Shown in pieces: positions 2,630 through 21,210 of a stretch of 64,000 nucleotides of DNA. Within the stretch, counting starts at the first letter, position 1. The number at the start of each line of letters is the position of its first letter. A model generated the notes under the pieces. It ran no database searches. It was not told the origin of the DNA and saw only the letters and a program-made list of their open reading frames with translations. The stretch lies in assembly GCF_988243305.1 (NCBI RefSeq), contig NZ_OZ547136.1; one strand, written 5' to 3'. Position numbers and translations under genes: made by a program.

Positions 2630-3149
2630 TCAGCAACCCCGGTATCAGTTCATCCAGCGCGGCTGCTTTGTTCATGGCTTTGATGATATCCCGTTTCAGG
2701 AAATCAACATGTCGGTTTTCCAGTTCCGGAAAACGCCGCTGCACCGACAGGGGGATCCCGTCGAGAATACTGGCAATTTCACCTGCGATCCGCGACAGCA
2801 CGAAAGTACAGAATGCGGTTTCCACCACTTCAGCGGAGTCTCTGGCATTCTTCAGTTCCTGTGCGTCGGCCTGCGCACGCGTAAGTCGATGGCGTTCGTA
2901 CTCAATAGTCCCTGGCTGGAGATCTGCCTCGCTGGCCTGCCGCAGTTCTTCAACCTCCCGGCGCAGCTTTTCGTTCTCAATTTCAGCATCCCTTTCGGCA
3001 TACCATTTTATAACGGCAGCAGAGTCATAAAGCACCTCATTACCCTTGCCACCGCCTCGCAGAACGGGCATTCCCTGTTCCTGCCAGTTCTGAATGGTAC
3101 GGATACTCGCACCGAAAATGTCAGCCAGCTGCTTTTTGTTGACTTCCAT
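2604..3149 (-). CDS. nu1: Terminase small subunit Nu1
   Basis: 181-aa ORF MEVNKKQLADIFGASIRTIQNWQEQGMPVLRGGGKGNEVLYD..., matches lambda Nu1; overlaps start of A as in lambda. Confidence 0.95.
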
Positions 3150-3326
3150 TGTTCATTCCACGGACAAAAACAGAGAAAGGAAACGACAGAGGCCAAAAAG
3201 CTCGCTTTCAGCACCTGTCGTTTCCTTTCTTTTCAGGTGGTGTTTTAAATAAAAACATTAAGTTACGGCGAAGAAGAACGGAAACGCCTTAAACCGGAAA
3301 ATTTTCATAAATAGCGAAAACCCGCG

Positions 3327-3338
3327 AGGTCGCCGCCC
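3327..3338. other. cos: cosN cohesive-end site within cos region (~3150-3420)
   Basis: Plus strand reads aggtcgccgccc, the reverse complement of the lambda 12-nt cohesive end GGGCGGCGACCT, flanked by lambda-like left-end and right-end sequence. Confidence 0.85.
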
Positions 3339-3537
3339 CGTAACCTGTCGGATCGCCGGAAAGGACCCGCAAAATGATAATAATTATCATCTACATGTCA
3401 CAACGTGCATCTACGCCATCAAACCACGTCAAATAATCAATTATGACGCAGGTATCGTATTAATTGATCTGCATCAACTTAACGTAAAAACAACTTCAGA
3501 CAATACAAATCAGTGACACTGAATACAGGGCAACCTC

Positions 3538-3732
3538 ATGTCAACGAAGAACAGAACCCGCAGAACAACAACCCGCAACATCCGCTTTCCTAACCCAATG
3601 ATTGAACAAATTAACATCGCTCTTGATCAAAAAGGGTCTGGGAATTTCTCAGCCTGGGTCATTGAAGCCTGCCGTCGGAGACTAACGTCAGAAAAGAGAG
3701 CATATACATCAATCCAAAGTGATGATGAATAA
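3538..3732 (+). CDS. Small basic protein of unknown function (recalled as DUF3950/YlcI-like)
   Basis: 64-aa ORF MSTKNRTRRTTTRNIRFPNPMIEQINIALDQKGSGNF...; family assignment from memory only. Confidence 0.5.
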   Translation: MSTKNRTRRTTTRNIRFPNPMIEQINIALDQKGSGNFSAWVIEACRRRLTSEKRAYTSIQSDDE

Positions 3733-4094
3733 ACATCCCGGTTTCTTCCACCATCGCACCGGAAAAGCAACTATGAGGGTAACCCTGCGTCTGTCAGCAC
3801 AGTAAAACCCGGTGTGCATCGTTTTTGATTATTCCCGCACACTCACGCAGAAGGAATTCCCCGTCGGGCTACGGTCATGGTTAATGCGGGAATACGGCGA
3901 CGATACAGCGCAGCTAAAAGGGTAATGGACAGAAAGAGCGGTTTATTTCATTCCACAGGATTCTGAGTGTCCCCAACTTCCTCCAATAGTCTGAGCGTAC
4001 ACCTATATAGTTTTAATTTTCATCAATCCATTTAACTATCGTTTAATTGTTGTCACATAGGATTCCGCCGTTTTTAACAATGCAGGATAATAAG

Positions 4095-4419: not shown

Positions 4420-4881
4420 CTATCTGCACTGCTCATTAATATACTTCTGGGTTCCTTCCAGTTGTTTTTGCATAGTGATCAGCCTCTCTCTGAGGGTGAA
4501 ATAATCCCGTTCAGCGGTGTCTGCCAGTCGGGGGGAGGCTGCATTATCCACGCCGGAGGCGGTGGTGGCTTCACGCACTGACTGACAGACTGCTTTGATG
4601 TGCAACCGACGACGACCAGCGGCAACATCATCACGCAGAGCATCATTTTCAGCTTTCGCATTAGCTAACTCCTTCGTGTATTTTTCATCCAGTGCAGCAA
4701 CATCACGCTGGCGCATCTGCATGTCAGTAATTGCCGCGTTCGCCAGCTTCAGTTCTCTGGCATTTTTGTCGCGCTGGGCTTTGTAGGTAATGGCGTTATC
4801 ACGGTAATGATTAACAGCCCATGACAGGCAGACGATGATGCAGATAACCAGAGCGGAGATAATCGCGGTTACTCTGTTCAT
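4420..4881 (-). CDS. Rz: i-spanin Rz
   Basis: [50 protein letters not shown]... matches lambda Rz; start overlaps endolysin stop (ATGA). Confidence 0.9.
4479..4661 (-). CDS. Rz1: o-spanin Rz1 lipoprotein, embedded in +1 frame of Rz
   Basis: 60-aa [63 protein letters not shown], proline-rich lipoprotein nested in Rz as in lambda. Confidence 0.85.
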
Positions 4882-5375
4882 TGCTGACCCCACAAACAGA
4901 TTTCACGCTCAATCTCACGACGAGTCATGAGACCTTTCCATTGCTTACCGCCAGCATATGTCCAGCGACGTAGCTGATCACATGCGCCTTTGATATCGCC
5001 CTGGTTTATTTTGCGAAGAAGCGTCGATGTTCTGAAATTGCCAGCGCCCACGTTGTAAACGAACGAGTAAAGAGCGCCGCGCGTTGTTTCCGGTATATCA
5101 ACTTTGATGTACGGGTTAATTTGTCTGGCGACCGTGGCAAGGTCTTTATTCAGGAGGGCTTTGCATTCTGCTTTGGTATACGTTTTACCGAGCATGATGT
5201 CTTTTCCTGTATGCCCGTGACATACAGTCCATACACCAACAATATCTTTGTATGGTATGTAGCTGACACCTTCCAGACCATCGTTACCACTTGGGCCAGT
5301 AATTAACACTGATGCTATAGCAATTGCTCCGCCACCAATAGCAGCAGCAACGGCTTTTCGTAATGATGGAGGCAT
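4878..5375 (-). CDS. Endolysin (T4-lysozyme-like with N-terminal signal-anchor-release segment, phage 21 / DLP12 RrrD type)
   Basis: 165-aa [62 protein letters not shown]...; hydrophobic Gly/Ala-rich N-terminus then lysozyme-like domain. Confidence 0.85.
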
Positions 5376-13002: not shown

Positions 13003-13695
13003 ATGCTTACCCGTGAAAATATGCTTAATGGCACATTTGTCAGGGTGCATGAAGCGCTGCTCCCGGCGAATATGCTCTGGGACGCTGAAAAAATACGCGC
13101 ATCAATGAACTCTACTCTGGAGGAGCGCCCGACGGGTGCTCCTTTCTGGATATTTGCCTACGGGTCATTGATGTGGAATCCCGTGCTGGCAATTGAAGAA
13201 ATGCAACGGGCCCGTCTGAAAGGATGGCAGCGCAGTTTCTGCATTCGTTTGATATCCGGACGAGCGACTCCTGATGTCCCCGGCAGGATGTTATCGCTCG
13301 ACGAAGGTGGAATTACCGAAGGTATTGCGTTCAGACTGCCGGAATCGACTCTTATTAATGAGCTGGAAATTGTCTGGACGCGCGAGATGATAACCGGTCT
13401 TTACCGTCCGGTCTGGGCAGACGTTTCGCTAGGAAACGGTGAGGAAATTCAGGCGCTGGCTTTCGTATCAGACAGACTGCATCCGCATTATGAACAGGAC
13501 AATCTTACAGCGACCGTAGCGTTGAGCATCGCATCTGCCCGTGGAGACATTGGCACGAATGCAGATTATGTATGGAAACTGCAGGCCACTCTGGGTGCGT
13601 TGGGAATACGGGATGATTACGTGAGTGAACTGGCCCTTGCTCTGCATGAGGCTCCCTGTAACGATAAACTTCATCAGCGAGGCGCTTCACTATGA
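13003..13695 (+). CDS. ChaC-like gamma-glutamylcyclotransferase family protein
   Basis: 230-aa ORF with FWIFAYGSLMWNP motif and overall similarity to ChaC. Confidence 0.7.
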   Translation: MLTRENMLNGTFVRVHEALLPANMLWDAEKIRASMNSTLEERPTGAPFWIFAYGSLMWNPVLAIEEMQRARLKGWQRSFCIRLISGRATPDVPGRMLSLDEGGITEGIAFRLPESTLINELEIVWTREMITGLYRPVWADVSLGNGEEIQALAFVSDRLHPHYEQDNLTATVALSIASARGDIGTNADYVWKLQATLGALGIRDDYVSELALALHEAPCNDKLHQRGASL

Positions 13696-14573
13696 GCCAT
13701 CTGAGCCATCTGCGAACGTTTCTTGAGGCCTATCGCTCTGGCTCCTTTTCAAAGGCGGCAGAACTACTGGGCATCACTCAGCCCGCGGCGTCACAGCATA
13801 TCCAGTCTCTTGAGACTCTGGTTGGTAAGCGTCTGTTTATCAGGCAGGCCAGAGGCGTGACGGCAACCGAAGCTGCGGATGAGCTTGCCCGCTCAGTTTC
13901 ACCCTTCATTGATGGTCTGGAAGAAAAGCTGTCCTCTTTCCGGTCAGGCTCTGTACACGGGGGAACAATTAATCTGGCAGGACCGCCAGATTTTATTCAT
14001 TCCCGGCTTGGGACAGTAATGGCTCCACTAATGAAGGAGGGGTATCGCCTACGCTTTCATACCGGCAATAAGCAACGTATTTATTCCCTTTTGCATGACG
14101 GGAGCGCCGATCTCGCTGTTACCGCATCTATGCCTGATGACCGTCTGTACGGCTATGCACATCTACTGACTGAACGCATGCTCCTTGTTCATGCTCCCGC
14201 CATGTCAGAGATCATCGGATCAGAACCTGGTGCTGAAACGCTTGCCTCATTACCGCTGATTGCTTATGACGAAGAGTTGCCACTGATTAGAGCGCTCTGG
14301 GCCTCCATGTTTCAGAGAGCCCCTGAGATGCAGGCTACATTCACCATTCCGGATTTACGTATTATCCGCGACTTGGTCTGTGACGGCCACGGGTGGACAG
14401 TGCTGCCGGATTATCACTGTGACAATGACCTGAAAAGTGGTCGCCTGATTTCAGTGACACCTGCAGACCTCGCTCCGACTAATCATCTTTATCTGGTCTG
14501 GAACAAAAGGACGGCTAATAACAGCCGAACCGCCTATGTTCGGGATTACATTCTTAAAACGTTTCCGCGTTGA
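13692..14573 (+). CDS. LysR-family transcriptional regulator
   Basis: 293-aa ORF MSHLSHLRTFLEAYRSGSFSKAAELLGITQPAASQHIQSLE... (LysR HTH), overlaps ChaC-like stop by 4 nt. Confidence 0.85.
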   Translation: MSHLSHLRTFLEAYRSGSFSKAAELLGITQPAASQHIQSLETLVGKRLFIRQARGVTATEAADELARSVSPFIDGLEEKLSSFRSGSVHGGTINLAGPPDFIHSRLGTVMAPLMKEGYRLRFHTGNKQRIYSLLHDGSADLAVTASMPDDRLYGYAHLLTERMLLVHAPAMSEIIGSEPGAETLASLPLIAYDEELPLIRALWASMFQRAPEMQATFTIPDLRIIRDLVCDGHGWTVLPDYHCDNDLKSGRLISVTPADLAPTNHLYLVWNKRTANNSRTAYVRDYILKTFPR

Positions 14574-14625
14574 TGTTTGAAACGGATGATTGGCGATGTG
14601 TATCATAAGTTACGTATGTCCGCTT

Positions 14626-14641
14626 CTGGCACAAAGCAGAC
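14626..14641 (+). repeat. 16-17 bp direct repeat, copy 1 (ctggcacaaagcagac), flanking the membrane-protein/BCCT module
   Basis: Near-identical copy cttggcacaaagcggac at 18298-18314. Confidence 0.5.
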
Positions 14642-14703
14642 GCCCACTCTCACGCGAATGCTTTGCCCTTGACTTGCCAACAACCGTATCGCTTGCTCCG
14701 CAA

Positions 14704-15996
14704 CTATGGTTTTTTATTAGAACCTTCGCCACTAAATAAATTATAATAAATTGATTTTATTAGATATCTGTCAGAATCTATATGGTCAGCACGAGTAGCA
14801 TGCTCTAATGTTTCAAATGCTAGGGTTTGTGCGGCTTCAGCAAAAATTCCAGGCCAACCCTTACTCAGCATCGACAGTCCTTTAAGTACCCTTATCTGAA
14901 TTTCCCTCATACTGGCACCATCGCGCGCAACAGGTGAGAAAAAGTCTTCAAGTAGATCGTTATTCTGAAGTGGTGCAACATGTACAGAAGGATATTTCAC
15001 TTCTATTTCATCAGATTTATTCTGCGCGTAAGCGGAAAGTATACGTACACCTCTGCCAATGACATCAATGGCGGTTCCAGGATCGTTCACTGCGGGGGAA
15101 AGGGCTCGGCAGGCTATTTCGGCCATGACGCTAAGACAAAATCGGGGGTCCTGAGCAAATGAACGTACATCCGAGACAATAATCGTCTCAAGTAAATCGG
15201 TGCTGATTGATGACTCCTGGCCCTGACTCAGGTACAAAACTGGCGTGGACGGATGTATGAAACTGCCCGGCTGCGCCACGAGGTATACATGACGGGGATC
15301 ATTGGTCAGCAGCTTGCTGAGTTTCACCATATCAACATATTCAACATAGCCAATCTTTTTCGGATAAACTGCAACCGTTCCTTTCGGCTGTTCATTGTTC
15401 TCAAGCCATGGATATCCGCCGAGACAGGGATTTCTTGCTCTCGCAATAAATGTTTCGATGGCCGCCTGTTCTACTTTTGCCGTTGTCTCACCAACCCTCC
15501 CCAGAGAGGTCAAATGCTGTATCCAGCGAAGCAATGTGATGAGGATTAAGGCAATGACAACCAGTGTTACAATGAATAAAATGACTCTCCCCCTTTCTCC
15601 ATAAGCTCCCATATTGAGGGCAATAATCCCTACCAGACTGAAGAGAAAAGAACCGATGAAGGTGGCCAGTACATTTTGTGTGGTGACGTCTTCAACAACT
15701 AAACGAGTAGCTCTGGGAGTCACATTAGTAGTGGCTGAACCGTAGGCTGTGACCATGATGCTCAGCGAAAATGTGGTCACTGCCAGCATACTCGATGCCA
15801 GTATGTTCAGAATGTTATCGACTGCTTCCGCACCAACCTTCACGGAAACCGACTCAGGTATCATTGATTTAAAAAGAATTGATAAAAGGGCCGTTATTAT
15901 TGCGACAATTGCGAATAACGTTGCCCTGAACCATAGTTTTTTAAATGTCTGCTTCAGCATCCATTTCCAGCGTGAAATCATTCTGCATTCCCTCAT
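14704..15996 (-). CDS. Polytopic inner-membrane protein, family uncertain (possibly DUF2254-like)
   Basis: 430-aa ORF with N-terminal TM helices and a soluble C-terminal region; start codon uncertain. Confidence 0.5.
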   Translation of the reverse strand: MRECRMISRWKWMLKQTFKKLWFRATLFAIVAIITALLSILFKSMIPESVSVKVGAEAVDNILNILASSMLAVTTFSLSIMVTAYGSATTNVTPRATRLVVEDVTTQNVLATFIGSFLFSLVGIIALNMGAYGERGRVILFIVTLVVIALILITLLRWIQHLTSLGRVGETTAKVEQAAIETFIARARNPCLGGYPWLENNEQPKGTVAVYPKKIGYVEYVDMVKLSKLLTNDPRHVYLVAQPGSFIHPSTPVLYLSQGQESSISTDLLETIIVSDVRSFAQDPRFCLSVMAEIACRALSPAVNDPGTAIDVIGRGVRILSAYAQNKSDEIEVKYPSVHVAPLQNNDLLEDFFSPVARDGASMREIQIRVLKGLSMLSKGWPGIFAEAAQTLAFETLEHATRADHIDSDRYLIKSIYYNLFSGEGSNKKP

Positions 15997-16044
15997 ATTG
16001 CAGCCGGGATAAATAAATGCCGCCTCTGTGGCGGCATGTTGCTG

Positions 16045-18048
16045 TTAACGAACCAGATGCAGGAAGTGCAGGTGTTTTTCGTACTGGTCCAGTATGTCAT
16101 TAATCAGCTGTTCCTGATTCCAGCCCATTACATCATAATTTTGGCCGCCCTCTTTGAGATAGACTTCAGCGCGATAATATCGATGTTGTTCACTCTGCTG
16201 CTCATCATTATCCAGCGCAGCGAGCGCGAAGGTCGGTGAGTTATACCCGCGAAGCCTCACTTCATATATATAATTCAGCTCGTTGCCCAAATCGACTTCA
16301 AGGCGAATACGATCCTCGGCGGCGTCACTGATGTGGCTTATCGTTCCCTGCTTGTTAAGTTCCTCCTGAACCAGCGTCATGGCGGGTTGGATAATGTCGT
16401 CCATAAAACGTTTCACAAGAGAGCGCTTCGGCAAATACGCGATATTGCGTAACCTTCTCTGCCAGGGAATTGGGTTACGTGCAGCCGTAGGAGCAATAGT
16501 CGCCATGCTAAGGCTTTCACGCTTGGTCAAATCCCGACGCAGGGCTTTTAACAGTCCGTATATGGATATTAATAAGATAACTGAGAAGGGCAATGCACTC
16601 GCTATCGTTACGGTTTGCAACGCACTCAGCCCCCCTGCGATCAGCAGGGCAATAGCAACAACGCCCATGAGCGATGCCCAGAAAATTCGCTGCCAGACGG
16701 GCGTGTTTGCCACCCCACCTGATGCCAGAGTATCCACAACCATTGCCCCCGAATCAGCAGACGTTACAAAGAAGACGATGACCATCGCCATTGCAATGAA
16801 TGACAGCACGGAAGAGAACGGGAAATGCTCCAGGAAATTAAACAGGGCAAGCGCAACATCCTGCTGAACGGTATTGGCGAGGTCAGTGGCGCCCTGGTTC
16901 ATGATGAGATAGATGGCGCTGTTTCCAAACACCGTCATCCACATGAGCGTAAAGCCGGCGGGAACAAACAACACGCCAGTCACGAACTCACGAATTGTCC
17001 TGCCGCGGGAAACGCGTGCAATGAACATACCTACAAACGGCGACCATGAAAGCCACCATCCCCAGTATAATAATGTCCAGCCCCCCAGCCAGTTGCTCGA
17101 CTTGGGTTCATACGCGTAAAGGTTGAACGTTTTACTCACCAGTTCCGACAGATAACCACCCGTATTTTCCACAAATGACTTCAGCAGAAGCACAGTGGGA
17201 CCCAGGCACAAGACCAGCGCCAGGAGCAACACCGCCAGGCCCAGATTAAGCTCAGACAGGATGCGTATTCCCTTGTCCAGGCCGGACACCACCGAAATCG
17301 TCGCTAACCCCGTGATGACCACGATCAAAATGACCTGTACCGTTTCATTGATGGGCACGCCGAAAAGATGGTTCAAACCGGCATTCACCTGCAATACACC
17401 GTAACCCAGTGATGTTGCAACGCCAAAGACAGTGCCTATCACGGCGAAGATATCAACCGCGTGGCCTATAGGCCCGTAAATGCGATCGCCGATAATGGGA
17501 TAGAGCGCAGAACGCAGCGTTAAAGGCAGACCGTGACGGTAACTGAAAAAGGCCAGAATCAGCGCCACGATGGCATAAATTGCCCATGCGTGCAGACCCC
17601 AGTGGAAGAACGTCAGGCGCATGGCTTCCTTCGCTGCCGCAACGGTCTCTGGAGTGCCGACAGGTGGCGAAAGATAATGCATCACAGGTTCGGCAACGCC
17701 AAAGAACATCAGGCCGATCCCCATCCCTGCCGAAAAAAGCATCGCGAACCAGGAGTGGTAGCTGAAATCAGGCTGCGCATGGTCTGGGCCCAGCTTTATA
17801 TCACCGTAACGTGAGAGTCCAAGGAACGTGACGCTCAGTAAAATCAGGGCCACAGCAAGTATGTAGAACCAGCTGGCATTCGTGAAGATTTGTTGCTGAA
17901 GTAGTTTAAAATTTTTGTCGGCGACATCCGGGAATACGGCGGCAAAGGCGACAAGAAGGAAAATTAGCAAAGCAGATGTAAAGAATACCGCTTTGTTAAT
18001 CTGGCTTGTAGACTTCTTTGGGGTTGTATCATTTTCACTCATAATCAT
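16045..18048 (-). CDS. BCCT-family transporter (BetT-like choline/betaine transporter paralog)
   Basis: 667-aa ORF with BCCT hallmarks ...WTLLYWGWWLSWSPFVGMFIARVSRGRTIREF... and a BetT-like C-terminal cytoplasmic extension. Confidence 0.8.
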   Translation of the reverse strand: MIMSENDTTPKKSTSQINKAVFFTSALLIFLLVAFAAVFPDVADKNFKLLQQQIFTNASWFYILAVALILLSVTFLGLSRYGDIKLGPDHAQPDFSYHSWFAMLFSAGMGIGLMFFGVAEPVMHYLSPPVGTPETVAAAKEAMRLTFFHWGLHAWAIYAIVALILAFFSYRHGLPLTLRSALYPIIGDRIYGPIGHAVDIFAVIGTVFGVATSLGYGVLQVNAGLNHLFGVPINETVQVILIVVITGLATISVVSGLDKGIRILSELNLGLAVLLLALVLCLGPTVLLLKSFVENTGGYLSELVSKTFNLYAYEPKSSNWLGGWTLLYWGWWLSWSPFVGMFIARVSRGRTIREFVTGVLFVPAGFTLMWMTVFGNSAIYLIMNQGATDLANTVQQDVALALFNFLEHFPFSSVLSFIAMAMVIVFFVTSADSGAMVVDTLASGGVANTPVWQRIFWASLMGVVAIALLIAGGLSALQTVTIASALPFSVILLISIYGLLKALRRDLTKRESLSMATIAPTAARNPIPWQRRLRNIAYLPKRSLVKRFMDDIIQPAMTLVQEELNKQGTISHISDAAEDRIRLEVDLGNELNYIYEVRLRGYNSPTFALAALDNDEQQSEQHRYYRAEVYLKEGGQNYDVMGWNQEQLINDILDQYEKHLHFLHLVR

Positions 18049-18297
18049 TTATTCCATTAATTAAATCCGCACTGGATAGAAGGTACTACCTCTCACAGAG
18101 TAGCAAAGTTCAACTGGCTATGCGGGGTTAATCGGAATGCATGGTGGAATGAGTGCCGATACAAATCATCCTATATTCTAAGGAGTTTTAAGTTACTCAG
18201 CCTGCCAATTACTGGGGCATTTAATTTGTATGATCTGTATCAAAGCTGGGATATAAGTTAAGTGAAGTATATTAGGCACGAATTACCAGCGTCTGCT

Positions 18298-18382: not shown

Positions 18383-18805
18383 TCACTTCAATAAATACCG
18401 AACATCCCCCTGATAAAACGACAATATGCGCTGCATAACTTCGCTCTTCCGGCACTCGCGACAGATTATGTTTAGGCGACTGTCGTAGCGACGTATTTCT
18501 CCGTCAGGTAATGACCAGATAAGGTCCGGATCAACCACAACCGGTTTCTTCAGCTTTGCCCTCGATAATTTTTTGCGGGCATTTTGCCAGTCTTTACGAG
18601 CCTGTTCAGACGGGAATAACCCGTAGCCAGAATTGTATACATCGCCACTGGCAACCAGCTCTCTGGCCAGAACGCTCATCAGATATCTTGTTGCCCCAGT
18701 TTTAGCTTCCAGTTGTCGTAACGTCTCGCGCCCACTCTGGCGTACGAGTTCAAGAACCTGCCCTTTAATTTTTTCCCGCTCTTCTTGTGTAAAAACTTTT
18801 GCCAC
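18383..18805 (-). CDS. Hypothetical replication-module protein (lambda P position)
   Basis: 140-aa ORF MAKVFTQEEREKIKGQVLELVRQSGRETLRQLEAKTGATRYLM...; immediately downstream of the initiator gene. Confidence 0.4.
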   Translation of the reverse strand: MAKVFTQEEREKIKGQVLELVRQSGRETLRQLEAKTGATRYLMSVLARELVASGDVYNSGYGLFPSEQARKDWQNARKKLSRAKLKKPVVVDPDLIWSLPDGEIRRYDSRLNIICRECRKSEVMQRILSFYQGDVRYLLK

Positions 18806-18845: not shown

Positions 18846-19934
18846 TTACCCCCTGAAGCCCGGCGGAATTTCGTTATCCGGTTCAGAAATATGATTCACA
18901 CAACGCTGGTTGTTCGTGCCGCTTACCTGGAGCAACCAGGGGTTCTCAAAATTCCGGTCCGGTCCAAAAAACGTCGTCGCTCGCTGAACAAATTCCGTTC
19001 CCGTTTTCCCGGTAGCCGCCAAGTATCTTGCGTAACGCCTCACGCCATCCAGCATGGCCTCTGGTGGCACCCCCTCGCGTAATCTGGCCTTCCAGGCACT
19101 GAAAGCGGATTTCTTCGGGTTTGCCCCAGCACGCAACGGGTACTCCCGCCAGACCTGTTCGAACACATCCGGATAATCCACTCGTCCCACAGACTGCCCG
19201 GTGTTTTCCGGGACTACCCGATCGGCTTCCCGCTGAATGGCGGAATCGGCTTCAGGCTGCTGCAGTTGGTGTGATTGCTCCGCCCTTGCGGTCATCACCT
19301 GCTGCACAGCGCCCGAATCGGCTTTCAGCGCATACGCTGAATCGGCTTCCGGTGTCGTGCCTGCTGGCTGACCAAGATTGACGGTCTGAACATCCCCTGC
19401 CTGGTTCGTGGCGTTTTTTACGCCATGGACCATAGTGTTTTGATCTTCTTGATCTGTATCTTTATCTGTATCTTTATCTGTATCTTTATCTGTCGTGACT
19501 CGTCGTGACATGTGCGTGACATTTCGTGACGCGCCGTGACAATCGCCATTTTGTTCCCGCTTTCTTTCCCTCTCTCGCTGCGCCCTCTTGCGCTCTGCAG
19601 GAGATTTTGCGGTTTGCGAAATATTGCCGTTGTCCTCTTTAAGCACCTGGCGTTTTTCCCATCCAGTGATTAAATCACCATCAAGTACCCGCCCCTGCAT
19701 CGTCTGCAAAATTGAATCAATTACCTCTTCTGTCACGTCGAGCGCACTTGCCAAATCTTCTGTCGTGACATCAATGTGACCTCGCGTGACATTTCGTGAC
19801 GCGCTCACCAGGAGGTGGATATACACTGCCATCACTGTTGCAATTGGCTGCCCTGACACCCTGGCAATTGTTCGCCACTTAGGGTCATTTGGCATGTCAT
19901 GCCATAATCTGAGCCAGGCGTTAGCCATACTCAC
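18846..19934 (-). CDS. Replication initiator (O-like) containing the origin iterons
   Basis: 362-aa ORF; internal DKDT tandem repeat and two clusters of CGTGAC iterons inside the coding sequence, as in lambda O/ori. Confidence 0.6.
   Translation of the reverse strand: MSMANAWLRLWHDMPNDPKWRTIARVSGQPIATVMAVYIHLLVSASRNVTRGHIDVTTEDLASALDVTEEVIDSILQTMQGRVLDGDLITGWEKRQVLKEDNGNISQTAKSPAERKRAQRERERKREQNGDCHGASRNVTHMSRRVTTDKDTDKDTDKDTDQEDQNTMVHGVKNATNQAGDVQTVNLGQPAGTTPEADSAYALKADSGAVQQVMTARAEQSHQLQQPEADSAIQREADRVVPENTGQSVGRVDYPDVFEQVWREYPLRAGANPKKSAFSAWKARLREGVPPEAMLDGVRRYARYLAATGKTGTEFVQRATTFFGPDRNFENPWLLQVSGTNNQRCVNHISEPDNEIPPGFRG
19452..19540. repeat. Origin-like repeat cluster 1: ~3.5 tandem copies of a 12-bp unit (atctgtatcttt) followed by five CGTGAC iterons at 10-11 bp spacing
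   Basis: Read directly at 19441-19540. Confidence 0.7.
19764..19800. repeat. Origin-like repeat cluster 2: four (C)GTGAC iterons; shares an exact 21-bp block (gcgtgacatttcgtgacgcgc) with cluster 1
   Basis: Read directly at 19761-19810; an inverted copy gtcacg lies at ~19732. Confidence 0.65.
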
Positions 19935-19999: not shown

Positions 20000-20425
20000 T
20001 CAATGCACAGCCACAATATTTCCTGCAGGGCCACCACGATTCATCTGGTTGAAACCAGCGATCGCCACTGCGACAAAATCATCAGCGTCTCTCACCAGTC
20101 GTTCCCGCGTCTCCACTAGTTCCCGAAAATAGGCTGAGCTATGGCTGCGCATTCGGGCCACCAGCAGAGGTGGCATTGCTTTTTCGATAGCTGGTAACAA
20201 CGCCTGAATTTTTTCAACTGCATCAGGGGTGTCTTTCTCTACCCAGCGGAAAATTTTCTGGGTATTGCGAGCCAGGGCTTCCGGATGGCTGTCGTCATAC
20301 AGTTCTGGGAACGTCATACCCAGTTCAAAATAAGCCCTGGTTATTTCAGCTGCCGGAACTTTTTCACCGTCCGGATGCGCCCAGGCATTCATCGCCATGC
20401 GGATGTGTTCATGCTTGATTTTCAT
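20000..20425 (-). CDS. YdaT-like protein (CII-position gene of rac-type immunity region)
   Basis: 141-aa ORF MKIKHEHIRMAMNAWAHPDGEKVPAAEITRAYFELGMTFPELYDD...; follows the cro-like gene. Confidence 0.5.
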   Translation of the reverse strand: MKIKHEHIRMAMNAWAHPDGEKVPAAEITRAYFELGMTFPELYDDSHPEALARNTQKIFRWVEKDTPDAVEKIQALLPAIEKAMPPLLVARMRSHSSAYFRELVETRERLVRDADDFVAVAIAGFNQMNRGGPAGNIVAVH

Positions 20426-20690
20426 GAATCAAGCTCCTAGAAAGTGGTTGTGTTAACATTTTGGTATCTTCCAGCTCGGGCCAAATATTCATCCAATCAA
20501 AAGGCCTTAGTTGCTGACGTGTAACTTCACCATTACTGGCTCGCTCAATAAGGACACATAACGATGCCCCTAACACTTGACCTTTACTCAATGCCTTTCT
20601 TAGATAACCGATGCTGGTACCACACTCGCATGCAAACATACGCTGTTCATCTGACGAAAGAGAATTGAGAAATATTCTTAATTCTTCCAT
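20409..20690 (-). CDS. Cro-like HTH regulator (YdaS family)
   Basis: 93-aa ORF with HTH ...CGTSIGYLRKALSKGQ...; divergent from repressor gene across operator region. Confidence 0.6.
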   Translation of the reverse strand: MEELRIFLNSLSSDEQRMFACECGTSIGYLRKALSKGQVLGASLCVLIERASNGEVTRQQLRPFDWMNIWPELEDTKMLTQPLSRSLIHENQA

Positions 20691-20718
20691 AGCTACTCCT
20701 TAGTAAACACAGCAAAGA

Positions 20719-20754
20719 ATACCCACAGGTAAACAAAAGTCAATACCCACAGGT
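20719..20754. promoter_or_regulatory. OR-like operator region: two direct copies of ATACCCACAGGT between cro-like and repressor genes
   Basis: Copies at ~20719-20730 and ~20743-20754, with inverted flanks aggtaaacaa / ttgtttacct. Confidence 0.55.
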
Positions 20755-20790: not shown

Positions 20791-21210
20791 ATGGACAAAT
20801 ATGAATTTAGACGACAGCAACTCATCAAAATTCGTGATGAGAAATGCGATGGTAAAGCGGTTAACGTGGCCAGAAAGATCGGGCGCGAGCCTTCTTATGT
20901 ATCAAGAATGTTGTACCCAGAGGGGAAAAAGGGAAAAAAACGGATCGCTGATGATATGGTGGAGATTATCGAAGAGTCCTTTGGGTTACCCCGGGGATGG
21001 ATGGATGGTATCGTTTCATCATCAACGAACACAGCCTCCAGTTATGAAACAAGGGTTCTAACGCCACGACAACGTATTTTTTTAGATCTCTTAGACGAAC
21101 TGCCAGAAAGTGAAGCGGATAACTTATTAAAAACTCTTGAAGAGAAAAAACAGTATTACAATATGATCTACGAAGAAATCCGTAAAAAGAAAGCACAAAA
21201 CGCATCATAG
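20791..21210 (+). CDS. Putative prophage repressor (HTH protein, cI position)
   Basis: 139-aa ORF MDKYEFRRQQLIKIRDEKCDGKAVNVARKIGREPSYVSRML...; divergent to cro-like gene, flanked by operator-like palindromes. Confidence 0.55.
   Translation: MDKYEFRRQQLIKIRDEKCDGKAVNVARKIGREPSYVSRMLYPEGKKGKKRIADDMVEIIEESFGLPRGWMDGIVSSSTNTASSYETRVLTPRQRIFLDLLDELPESEADNLLKTLEEKKQYYNMIYEEIRKKKAQNAS

Follow-up and report, generated by a model that had tools for sequence, protein, structure and literature searches.

The question raised by this locus is whether a phage replication gene also carries the origin at which its own product acts. In the 64,000-nucleotide (nt) stretch of DNA analyzed here (contig NZ_OZ547136.1 of NCBI RefSeq assembly GCF_988243305.1; the whole stretch is called "the window" below), a minus-strand gene that encodes the replisome organizer-type initiator of a Qin-like lambdoid prophage contains arrays of short direct repeats ("iterons"). 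It seems quite likely (we estimate a probability of about 0.82) that this region, which lies within the coding sequence for the initiator, is the vegetative replication origin of the prophage. A preliminary description of the same DNA had proposed such an embedded origin, analogous to ori-λ but with different iterons, and both sequence and comparative evidence now back it. The arrangement matches those of ori-λ within gene O (PMC5043065, PMC7466680) and of oriL within gene 38 of phage SPP1 (PMC5737612), both of which are experimentally defined origins. The evidence consists of the repeats themselves, their phasing, their independence of reading frame, conservation at synonymous sites, co-inheritance with the N-terminal domain of the initiator, and an adjoining AT-rich minimum.

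Iterons and an AT-rich array within the initiator gene

The initiator gene contains two clusters of GTCAC(G) units (Table 1), which read CGTGAC on the plus strand, as well as a single copy in the opposite orientation between them; altogether, nine direct units and one inverted unit lie within 307 base pairs (bp), all of them inside the initiator coding sequence. In cluster 2, CGTGAC starts at 19494, 19504, 19515, 19525, and 19535 (spacing 10/11/10/10 bp). In cluster 1, exact copies start at 19764, 19785, and 19795 and a TGTGAC variant at 19775, so that the GTGAC pentamer is found at 19765, 19776, 19786, and 19796. The two clusters start 260 bp apart in the gene, and an exact 21-bp block, GCGTGACATTTCGTGACGCGC, is common to them (19514–19534 and 19784–19804). 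The five units at 10–11 bp spacing, the four more about 250 bp away, and the shared block had all been noted in the preliminary description, and all are present, one of the four as the TGTGAC variant; the inverted copy is an addition to that description. Nine of the window's 36 CGTGAC matches are packed into these 307 bp (the Poisson probability of at least eight on the same strand is about 1e-14), and there is no second CGTGAC cluster elsewhere in the window.

At a spacing of 10–11 bp the reading frame shifts from each unit to the next (frames 3/1/2/1 for cluster 1, 2/3/1/3/1 for cluster 2), and in gene orientation the hexamer is read as G-TCA-CG (Ser-Arg), GTC-ACG (Val-Thr), or GT-CAC (Gly-His or Cys-His). 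A peptide repeat therefore cannot be the source of the hexamers.

Relatives of the gene were sampled by a scan of one genome per species, which yielded 63 loci. Synonymous conservation was measured at the third codon positions of conserved residues in 21 genes with GTCACG-class iterons; these genes represent about 15 genera (including Escherichia, Aeromonas, Pseudomonas, Serratia, Bordetella, and Chromobacterium), and their protein identities are 61–87%. Third-position conservation is 0.93 inside the hexamers (n = 14) versus 0.57 outside them (n = 67; Mann-Whitney p = 1.2e-7). The cluster 1 units are 100% conserved in these 21 genes, synonymous sites included, and the inverted copy retains its GTGAC core in the aligned homologs (0.90 for the third position of Val65). 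Aeromonas phage pAEv1818 and Pseudomonas phages such as phi1 have N-terminal domains about 70% identical to that in the window (tblastn); in pAEv1818 and phi1 both clusters and the inverted copy occupy the same positions in the gene (cluster distance 260 and 259 bp, respectively), and no base of the hexamers differs, whereas the adjacent third codon positions vary freely. Cluster 2 occupies the same gene position in 20 other genomes besides those of the Aeromonas and Pseudomonas phages. In E. albertii and Morganella cluster 1 has two extra units, carried by a 21-bp in-frame insertion that adds seven residues, so that iteron number there changes in steps of 21 bp, two units, and seven codons. 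Since the hexamers span three frames and their synonymous sites are conserved, these comparisons argue that they are a signal at the DNA level and not a peptide repeat. Such selection on the DNA, together with inheritance alongside the N-terminal domain of the initiator (below), is what an embedded origin should display.

Tandem 12-mers that encode DKDT had also been described, and 3.9 copies of them (period 12, 97% matches, unit TCTTTATCTGTA; Tandem Repeats Finder) abut cluster 2. In the frame of the minus-strand open reading frame (ORF) they encode DKDT three times plus one further D, within a disordered linker of the protein. An AT-rich unwinding element was looked for next to the iterons, and this array itself has the properties of one: its GC content of 0.32 is the minimum of the initiator ORF, no 40-mer of the ORF is less stable (ΔG −42.4 kcal/mol versus a mean of −57.1, standard deviation 4.0), and in duplex instability the array lies at the 99.7th percentile of the window. 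The 12-mers are thus best interpreted as a tract beside the iterons that is AT-rich and would melt easily, and not as additional iterons. Among 80 near-identical E. coli-type loci from a scan of IMG/VR, which are informative for 12-mer copy number only and not for divergence, the number of DKDT copies ranges from 1 to 5; the array is therefore prone to slippage and has no fixed length. In every relative examined, even in those whose genes are 60–69% GC, cluster 2 is followed by a stretch of the GATAAA or GAAGA type that is rich in AT and purines.

The palindrome that lies just past the array (Table 1) has counterparts as well. A stem of at least 6 bp within 90 nt after the AT block is present at 26 of 59 family loci, compared with 7.3 expected from shuffled sequences and 7–8 in control segments. 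In Shigella phage 75/02 Stx both members of the loop-closing pair of this palindrome differ (GGCGA...TCGCC), a change that entails two amino acid replacements.

Several other motifs lie in or near these arrays. Two GATC (Dam) sites 9 bp apart (19442–19445 and 19451–19454) mark the far edge of the AT-rich array, and GATC is found at the same edge in Aeromonas, Serratia, Superficieibacter, and Morganella relatives; these sites could provide a link to methylation or SeqA, as at oriC. No DnaA box with one or fewer mismatches is present in the 18.3–21.3 kb region, and a DnaA-assisted model of initiation was dropped on the result of that scan. A DnaA-trio-like reading of the GAT-containing 12-mers was rejected, as the strand polarity appears to be at odds with that motif. 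A third repeat, GAAGCCGAT(T/C), is present on the minus strand in four copies between 19219 and 19349 (spacing 24/72/24 bp). These copies are in frame and encode (E/K)AD(S/R) in the disordered linker; Shigella phage 75/02 Stx has the repeat too, but with one of the copies out of frame. The repeat could be either a peptide motif or a DNA site.

Table 1. Features of the putative origin region and of the neighboring prophage genes (window coordinates; a dot marks features given without strand)
Feature	Coordinates	Strand	Basis or remark
cI/DicA-like repressor gene	20791–21210	+	
pR-like promoter candidate	20716–20743	-	consensus scan, 9/12 positions
YdaS/Cro-like gene	20409–20690	-	
YdaT/CII-like gene	20000–20425	-	
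Initiator (replisome organizer-type) gene	18846–19928	-	ORF list; 360 amino acids from ATG at 19928
N-terminal helical, wing-containing domain, residues 1–95, presumed iteron-binding	19644–19928	-	AlphaFold; PF09681 sub-threshold
Iteron cluster 1: four GTCAC(G) units, 10–11 bp apart	19764–19800	-	encodes residues 43–55 (ASRNVTRGHIDVT)
Single inverted iteron copy, GTCACG on plus strand, between clusters	19732–19737	+	
Iteron cluster 2: five GTCACG units, 10–11 bp apart	19494–19540	-	abuts AT-rich array
AT-rich 12-mer tandem array, proposed DNA unwinding element	19447–19493	.	Tandem Repeats Finder
Palindrome TGGTTCGTGGCGT-TTTTT-ACGCCATGGACCA	19402–19432	.	just past AT-rich array
C-terminal tail resembling host DnaT tail (…VNHISEPDNEIPPGFRG)	18849–18923	-	phmmer versus PDB; NCBIfam
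DUF977/Ren-like gene	18383–18805	-	PF06163, E = 2e-28; phrog_142 "Ren-like exclusion protein"; loader position in relatives

The initiator protein and its relatives

The ORF as called by program (18846–19934) starts with a GTG at 19934; the ATG at 19928 is the likelier start and is preceded by a Shine-Dalgarno-like AGAGG 5 nt to its 5′ side. The product belongs to PHROGs family phrog_3729 ("replication initiation protein," E = 3e-254) and is named "phage replisome organizer" by RefSeq in near-identical genomes. Searches of Pfam, NCBIfam, and PDB sequences identify no confident family beyond that of PHROGs, and at the Pfam default threshold the initiator has no match. Its N-terminal 126 amino acids align with 119 of the 121 positions of the PF09681 (Phage_rep_org_N) model with E = 0.01 and 16.2 bits (cut-off 23.3), which suggests a relationship, though one below threshold, to the SPP1 G38P-type replisome organizers. 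The preliminary description had called the ORF O-like. This is correct for its position and role, but the gene lies on the minus strand and its protein does not match the λ O family PF04492 even at E values up to 10; it is not a homolog of λ gpO.

The AlphaFold model has a helical domain with a β-hairpin at residues 1–95 (predicted local distance difference test scores mostly >90, over most of residues 11–90), followed by a basic helix (110–130), a disordered linker (139–251), a helical C-terminal domain (252–335), and a disordered tail. In this model the segments encoded by the iterons and 12-mers are a loop and the first part of the disordered linker, where constraint on the protein should be weakest. 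A Foldseek search of the model against the PDB found nothing significant (E ≥ 1); the top nonsignificant matches are all winged-helix regulators, which is a weak hint only.

The same N-terminal domain, with its iterons, is found fused to three different C-terminal domains (the type present in the window, a DnaT-like PF17948 type, and others). The gene that follows the initiator gene also varies; it encodes a DnaC-like protein in pAEv1818, a primase-helicase in phi1, and DnaB in Ralstonia phage Firinga, and in a Pfam scan of ten sampled genomic relatives the next gene is of the λ P family (PF06992) in six and IstB/DnaC-like in one. In Shigella phage 75/02 Stx a C-terminal domain of the window type (63% identity) is preceded by an N-terminal domain unrelated to that in the window. 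By these comparisons the iterons travel with the N-terminal domain as a portable module.

Two further observations concern these phages. The N-terminal half of the 75/02 Stx gene contains repeats of its own, AAGGGGCT, arranged as two inverted groups with about 250 bp between them (4580–4660 and 4880–4910 of the compared stretch), which adjoin a 6-bp tandem repeat (TCCTGT, six copies) and are a candidate origin in their own right. In Pseudomonas phage phi1 (KT887557) the 310-amino-acid initiator ORF that carries both clusters (2968–3900 of the compared stretch) is unannotated in GenBank, and the 609-amino-acid primase-helicase encoded after it carries the label "replication protein P."

More distant relatives, at 33–58% protein identity, also have two clusters with 10-bp spacing at about nt 120–160 and 340–430 of the gene, and there both clusters have, in every copy, a different unit (CGAACGC, GCAACG, or GTGACG). 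With iteron-encoded residues masked, iteron class agrees with the protein tree (the nearest neighbor is of the same class in 51 of 59 cases versus 18 expected), an agreement that common descent alone would also produce and that we do not count as proof of an origin. Every class ends in ACG (GTC-ACG, CGA-ACG, GCA-ACG, GTG-ACG), which suggests one fixed contact plus a variable triplet that determines specificity. At least 2,391 public proteins share the N-terminal domain of the initiator, and relatives are found across the Gamma-, Beta-, and Alphaproteobacteria.

Proposed mode of initiation and alternative roles for the repeats

If the region is an origin, transcription from the early rightward promoter would yield initiator, whose winged-helix-like N-terminal domain would bind the GTCAC(G) units and assemble into oligomers on both clusters. 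With one helical turn from unit to unit, the bound proteins should be aligned on one face of the DNA, and the 260 bp between the clusters, about 25 helical turns, could be bridged by looping. Strain, negative supercoiling, and transcription through the site might then melt the neighboring 12-mer array, which is rich in AT and purines. Recruitment of the host helicase machinery would fall to the C-terminal part of the initiator, whose DnaT-like tail suggests a link to DnaT/PriB or to DnaB-DnaC; of the whole mechanism, this recruitment is the weakest part.

The last 22–25 residues of the initiator are nearly identical to the C-terminal tail of E. coli DnaT (phmmer matches to PDB entries 6aep, 2ru8, and 9zbt, E = 0.002–0.06). 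There is no full-length match to DnaT; the match to the NCBIfam equivalog model NF002770 (19.3 bits, cut-off 201) is confined to model positions 156–179, and nothing beyond the tail is shared between DnaT and the window's protein. Since only the tail matches, the annotation "Primosomal protein I" given to some phage homologs appears to overstate the relationship. A complete single-stranded DNA-binding domain like the C-terminal one of DnaT (PF17948) is present in many relatives of the initiator from Enterobacter, Klebsiella, Pseudomonas, and E. coli, and the C-terminal domain of DnaT forms filaments on single-stranded DNA that mark the site of helicase loading (PMC13377028). The tail in the window and the whole DnaT-like domains in relatives hint that components of the host primosome are used. 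A helicase-loader partner had been looked for following the preliminary description and none is encoded in the window: tblastn of the whole 64 kb finds no P-, DnaC-, DnaB-, or primase-helicase-like sequence, and directly downstream of the initiator gene, in place of a P-type loader gene, lies the DUF977 gene. One could imagine, though we regard it as rather doubtful, that the initiator loads DnaB at a specific origin by imitating or recruiting the host restart primosome (DnaT/PriB/PriA, then DnaB-DnaC) in place of a λ P- or DnaC-type loader. The protein would in that case be an origin-targeted DnaT, localized by iteron binding, and its DnaT-like part would capture the melted purine-rich strand or plug into host DnaT filaments.

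Several points weigh against an embedded origin. Initiator binding, unwinding or melting of the DNA, autonomous replication, looping, and helicase recruitment are all steps that we infer from the arrangement, and we found no publication on this origin or its iterons in the freely accessible literature, including that on oriJ/Rac, DnaT-like initiators, and the Stx-phage "Eru" replication types. The homologs share descent, so the conservation counts are not independent of one another, although the sites inside and outside the hexamers come from one and the same set of sequences. The DNA-binding domain is weakly assigned to a family, with the PF09681 match below threshold and the fold search nonsignificant, and the window contains no helicase-loader gene, which leaves the loading step unexplained. 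The prophage, moreover, is cryptic with few structural genes, and the origin may be silent in this strain.

The arrays might be control sites to which the initiator binds, for autoregulation or for copy-number "handcuffing" of the two clusters, with replication starting elsewhere. In iteron plasmids additional sets of iterons serve control, and the presence here of two separate clusters and one inverted copy, with cluster 1 lying 230 bp from any AT-rich stretch, would suit such a role. In every relative, on the other hand, the gene's least stable DNA lies right beside cluster 2, and the window offers no other CGTGAC cluster, so we consider control alone unlikely. A control function is compatible with an origin in any case, and cluster 1 alone may have it. 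Far less probable is that the repeats, as a peptide repeat or the outcome of a recent duplication within the gene, are a by-product of coding and have no function as DNA. The preliminary description had itself named the peptide repeat as the alternative, and it has some foundation in that the 12-mers are in frame, encode DKDT, and are free to vary from 1 to 5 copies, and in that the clusters share the exact 21-bp block and encode similar peptides (SRNVT...VTT). For the hexamers a pure coding artifact is excluded by their use of all three frames and by conservation at synonymous sites (0.93 inside versus 0.57 outside), and the layout is kept from Escherichia to Pseudomonas and Bordetella and recurs with other hexamers in distant relatives; for the in-frame 12-mer array, a role solely as a peptide linker is possible.

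A centromere-like or packaging site bound by some other protein has also to be weighed, with the helix-turn-helix protein of the DUF977 gene as the candidate ligand. The parC site of plasmid R1 consists of two sets of five 11-bp repeats, to which two clusters of about five 10–11-bp direct repeats bear a resemblance, and a small DNA-binding-like protein is indeed encoded next door. However, parC-type systems have an adjacent gene for a partition ATPase or actin-like protein together with an adaptor gene, and neither the ORF list nor the region's RefSeq annotation contains any such gene. DUF977 is missing from relatives that have the same iterons, in which different genes lie downstream, and the iterons go with the N-terminal domain of the initiator and not with its neighbors, so that this alternative is as improbable as a coding by-product.

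Similar origins and the prophage setting

The origin proposed here resembles those of λ and of the Shiga toxin (Stx) phages 933W and P27, which have six iterons, in that it lies in the middle of the initiator gene, in an early rightward operon after cro- and cII-like genes, and in that the iteron array adjoins an AT-rich tract of about 40 bp (PMC5043065, PMC7466680). Changes in iteron number likewise add residues to the protein, 13 in the Stx phages and seven in the E. albertii and Morganella relatives. The λ-like layout proposed in the preliminary description therefore stands as far as iterons within an initiator gene are concerned but not in its details. The λ iterons are 19-bp inverted repeats that bind dimers (PMC5043065), whereas none of that type is present here and the units are direct repeats of 10–11 bp with a GTCAC(G) core of 5–6 bp; λ has a single cluster of four iterons and this gene two clusters, 260 bp apart. 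λ also has a P gene, which the window lacks, though many relatives pair the initiator with a λ P-family protein, and its O protein (PF04492) is not homologous to the initiator here.

SPP1 oriL is similar in lying in the gene of a replisome organizer, G38P, with repeated boxes bound by the organizer (such binding being presumed here) and an adjacent AT-rich unwinding element, and G38P, like the initiator here, has no AAA+ domain (PMC5737612); the N-terminal domain of the latter aligns end to end with PF09681. SPP1 differs in encoding its own helicase loader and helicase, G39P and G40P, neither of which is encoded in the window; the PF09681 match is below threshold (16.2 versus 23.3 bits), and the host ranges and iteron sequences are unrelated. 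The iteron plasmids of the P1, F, R6K, and pPS10 type, reviewed in PMC5043065, share direct repeats in one orientation, presumably bound by monomers, beside an AT-rich region, but their iterons are about 17–22 bp long and lie outside the rep coding sequence, and there is no DnaA box near the origin here.

Iterons with an unwinding element inside an initiator gene are thus a known kind of origin, while the initiator family is little studied and very widespread and apparently uncharacterized. The unusual traits of this example are its 10–11-bp units, its two clusters, a module that consists of the initiator only, and the mimic of the DnaT tail. The specificity classes (GTCACG, CGAACGC, GCAACG, and GTGACG) should allow typing of the replication and incompatibility modules of temperate phages, including relatives among the Stx phages, and the predicted minimal replicons might be used for vector building. 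The gene would also provide a clean natural case of a protein-binding code laid over a coding sequence in all three frames, and its initiator-only architecture with a DnaT-like tail offers a testable way into DnaB recruitment in systems that have no dedicated phage loader.

The local gene order is that of an early lambdoid region, with a cI/DicA-like repressor, YdaS/Cro-like, YdaT/CII-like, initiator, and DUF977/Ren-like genes (Table 1). The candidate pR-like promoter would drive the cro-like, cII-like, and initiator genes and hence transcribe the origin as well; sites with this consensus are no commoner than in shuffled sequences, so the assignment is weak. One complete E. coli genome has a stretch of 99.6% identity inside a Qin-like cryptic prophage between ydfJ and rspB; dicB, ydfB-D, hokD, essD, and rrrD are present in that prophage, and structural genes are few. 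The 3-kb module is present over at least 80% of its length in 477 of 5,426 complete E. coli genomes. The initiator gene is also found at 97–98% nucleotide identity in complete phage genomes (Tritos, Evi, and several vB_Eco phages), and in phage Tritos (97.8%) it is the sole recognizable replication gene. A tblastn search of plasmids gave 11 records, mainly prophages in large replicons or mislabeled chromosomes, with no sign that plasmids use this replicon.

Immediately after the DUF977 gene, a block of non-phage cargo (about 13500–18050) interrupts the Qin-like prophage. It includes ORFs for a BCCT transporter (16045–18048) and a DUF2254 protein (14704–15996) in the window, and the RefSeq annotation of a genome 99.6% identical over the 3 kb adds a LysR regulator, a gamma-glutamylcyclotransferase, and an MFS transporter to this cargo. 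Contigs from metagenome-assembled genomes of Collinsella sp. (Actinomycetota) match the E. coli prophage module at 100% identity, which most likely reflects contamination during binning.

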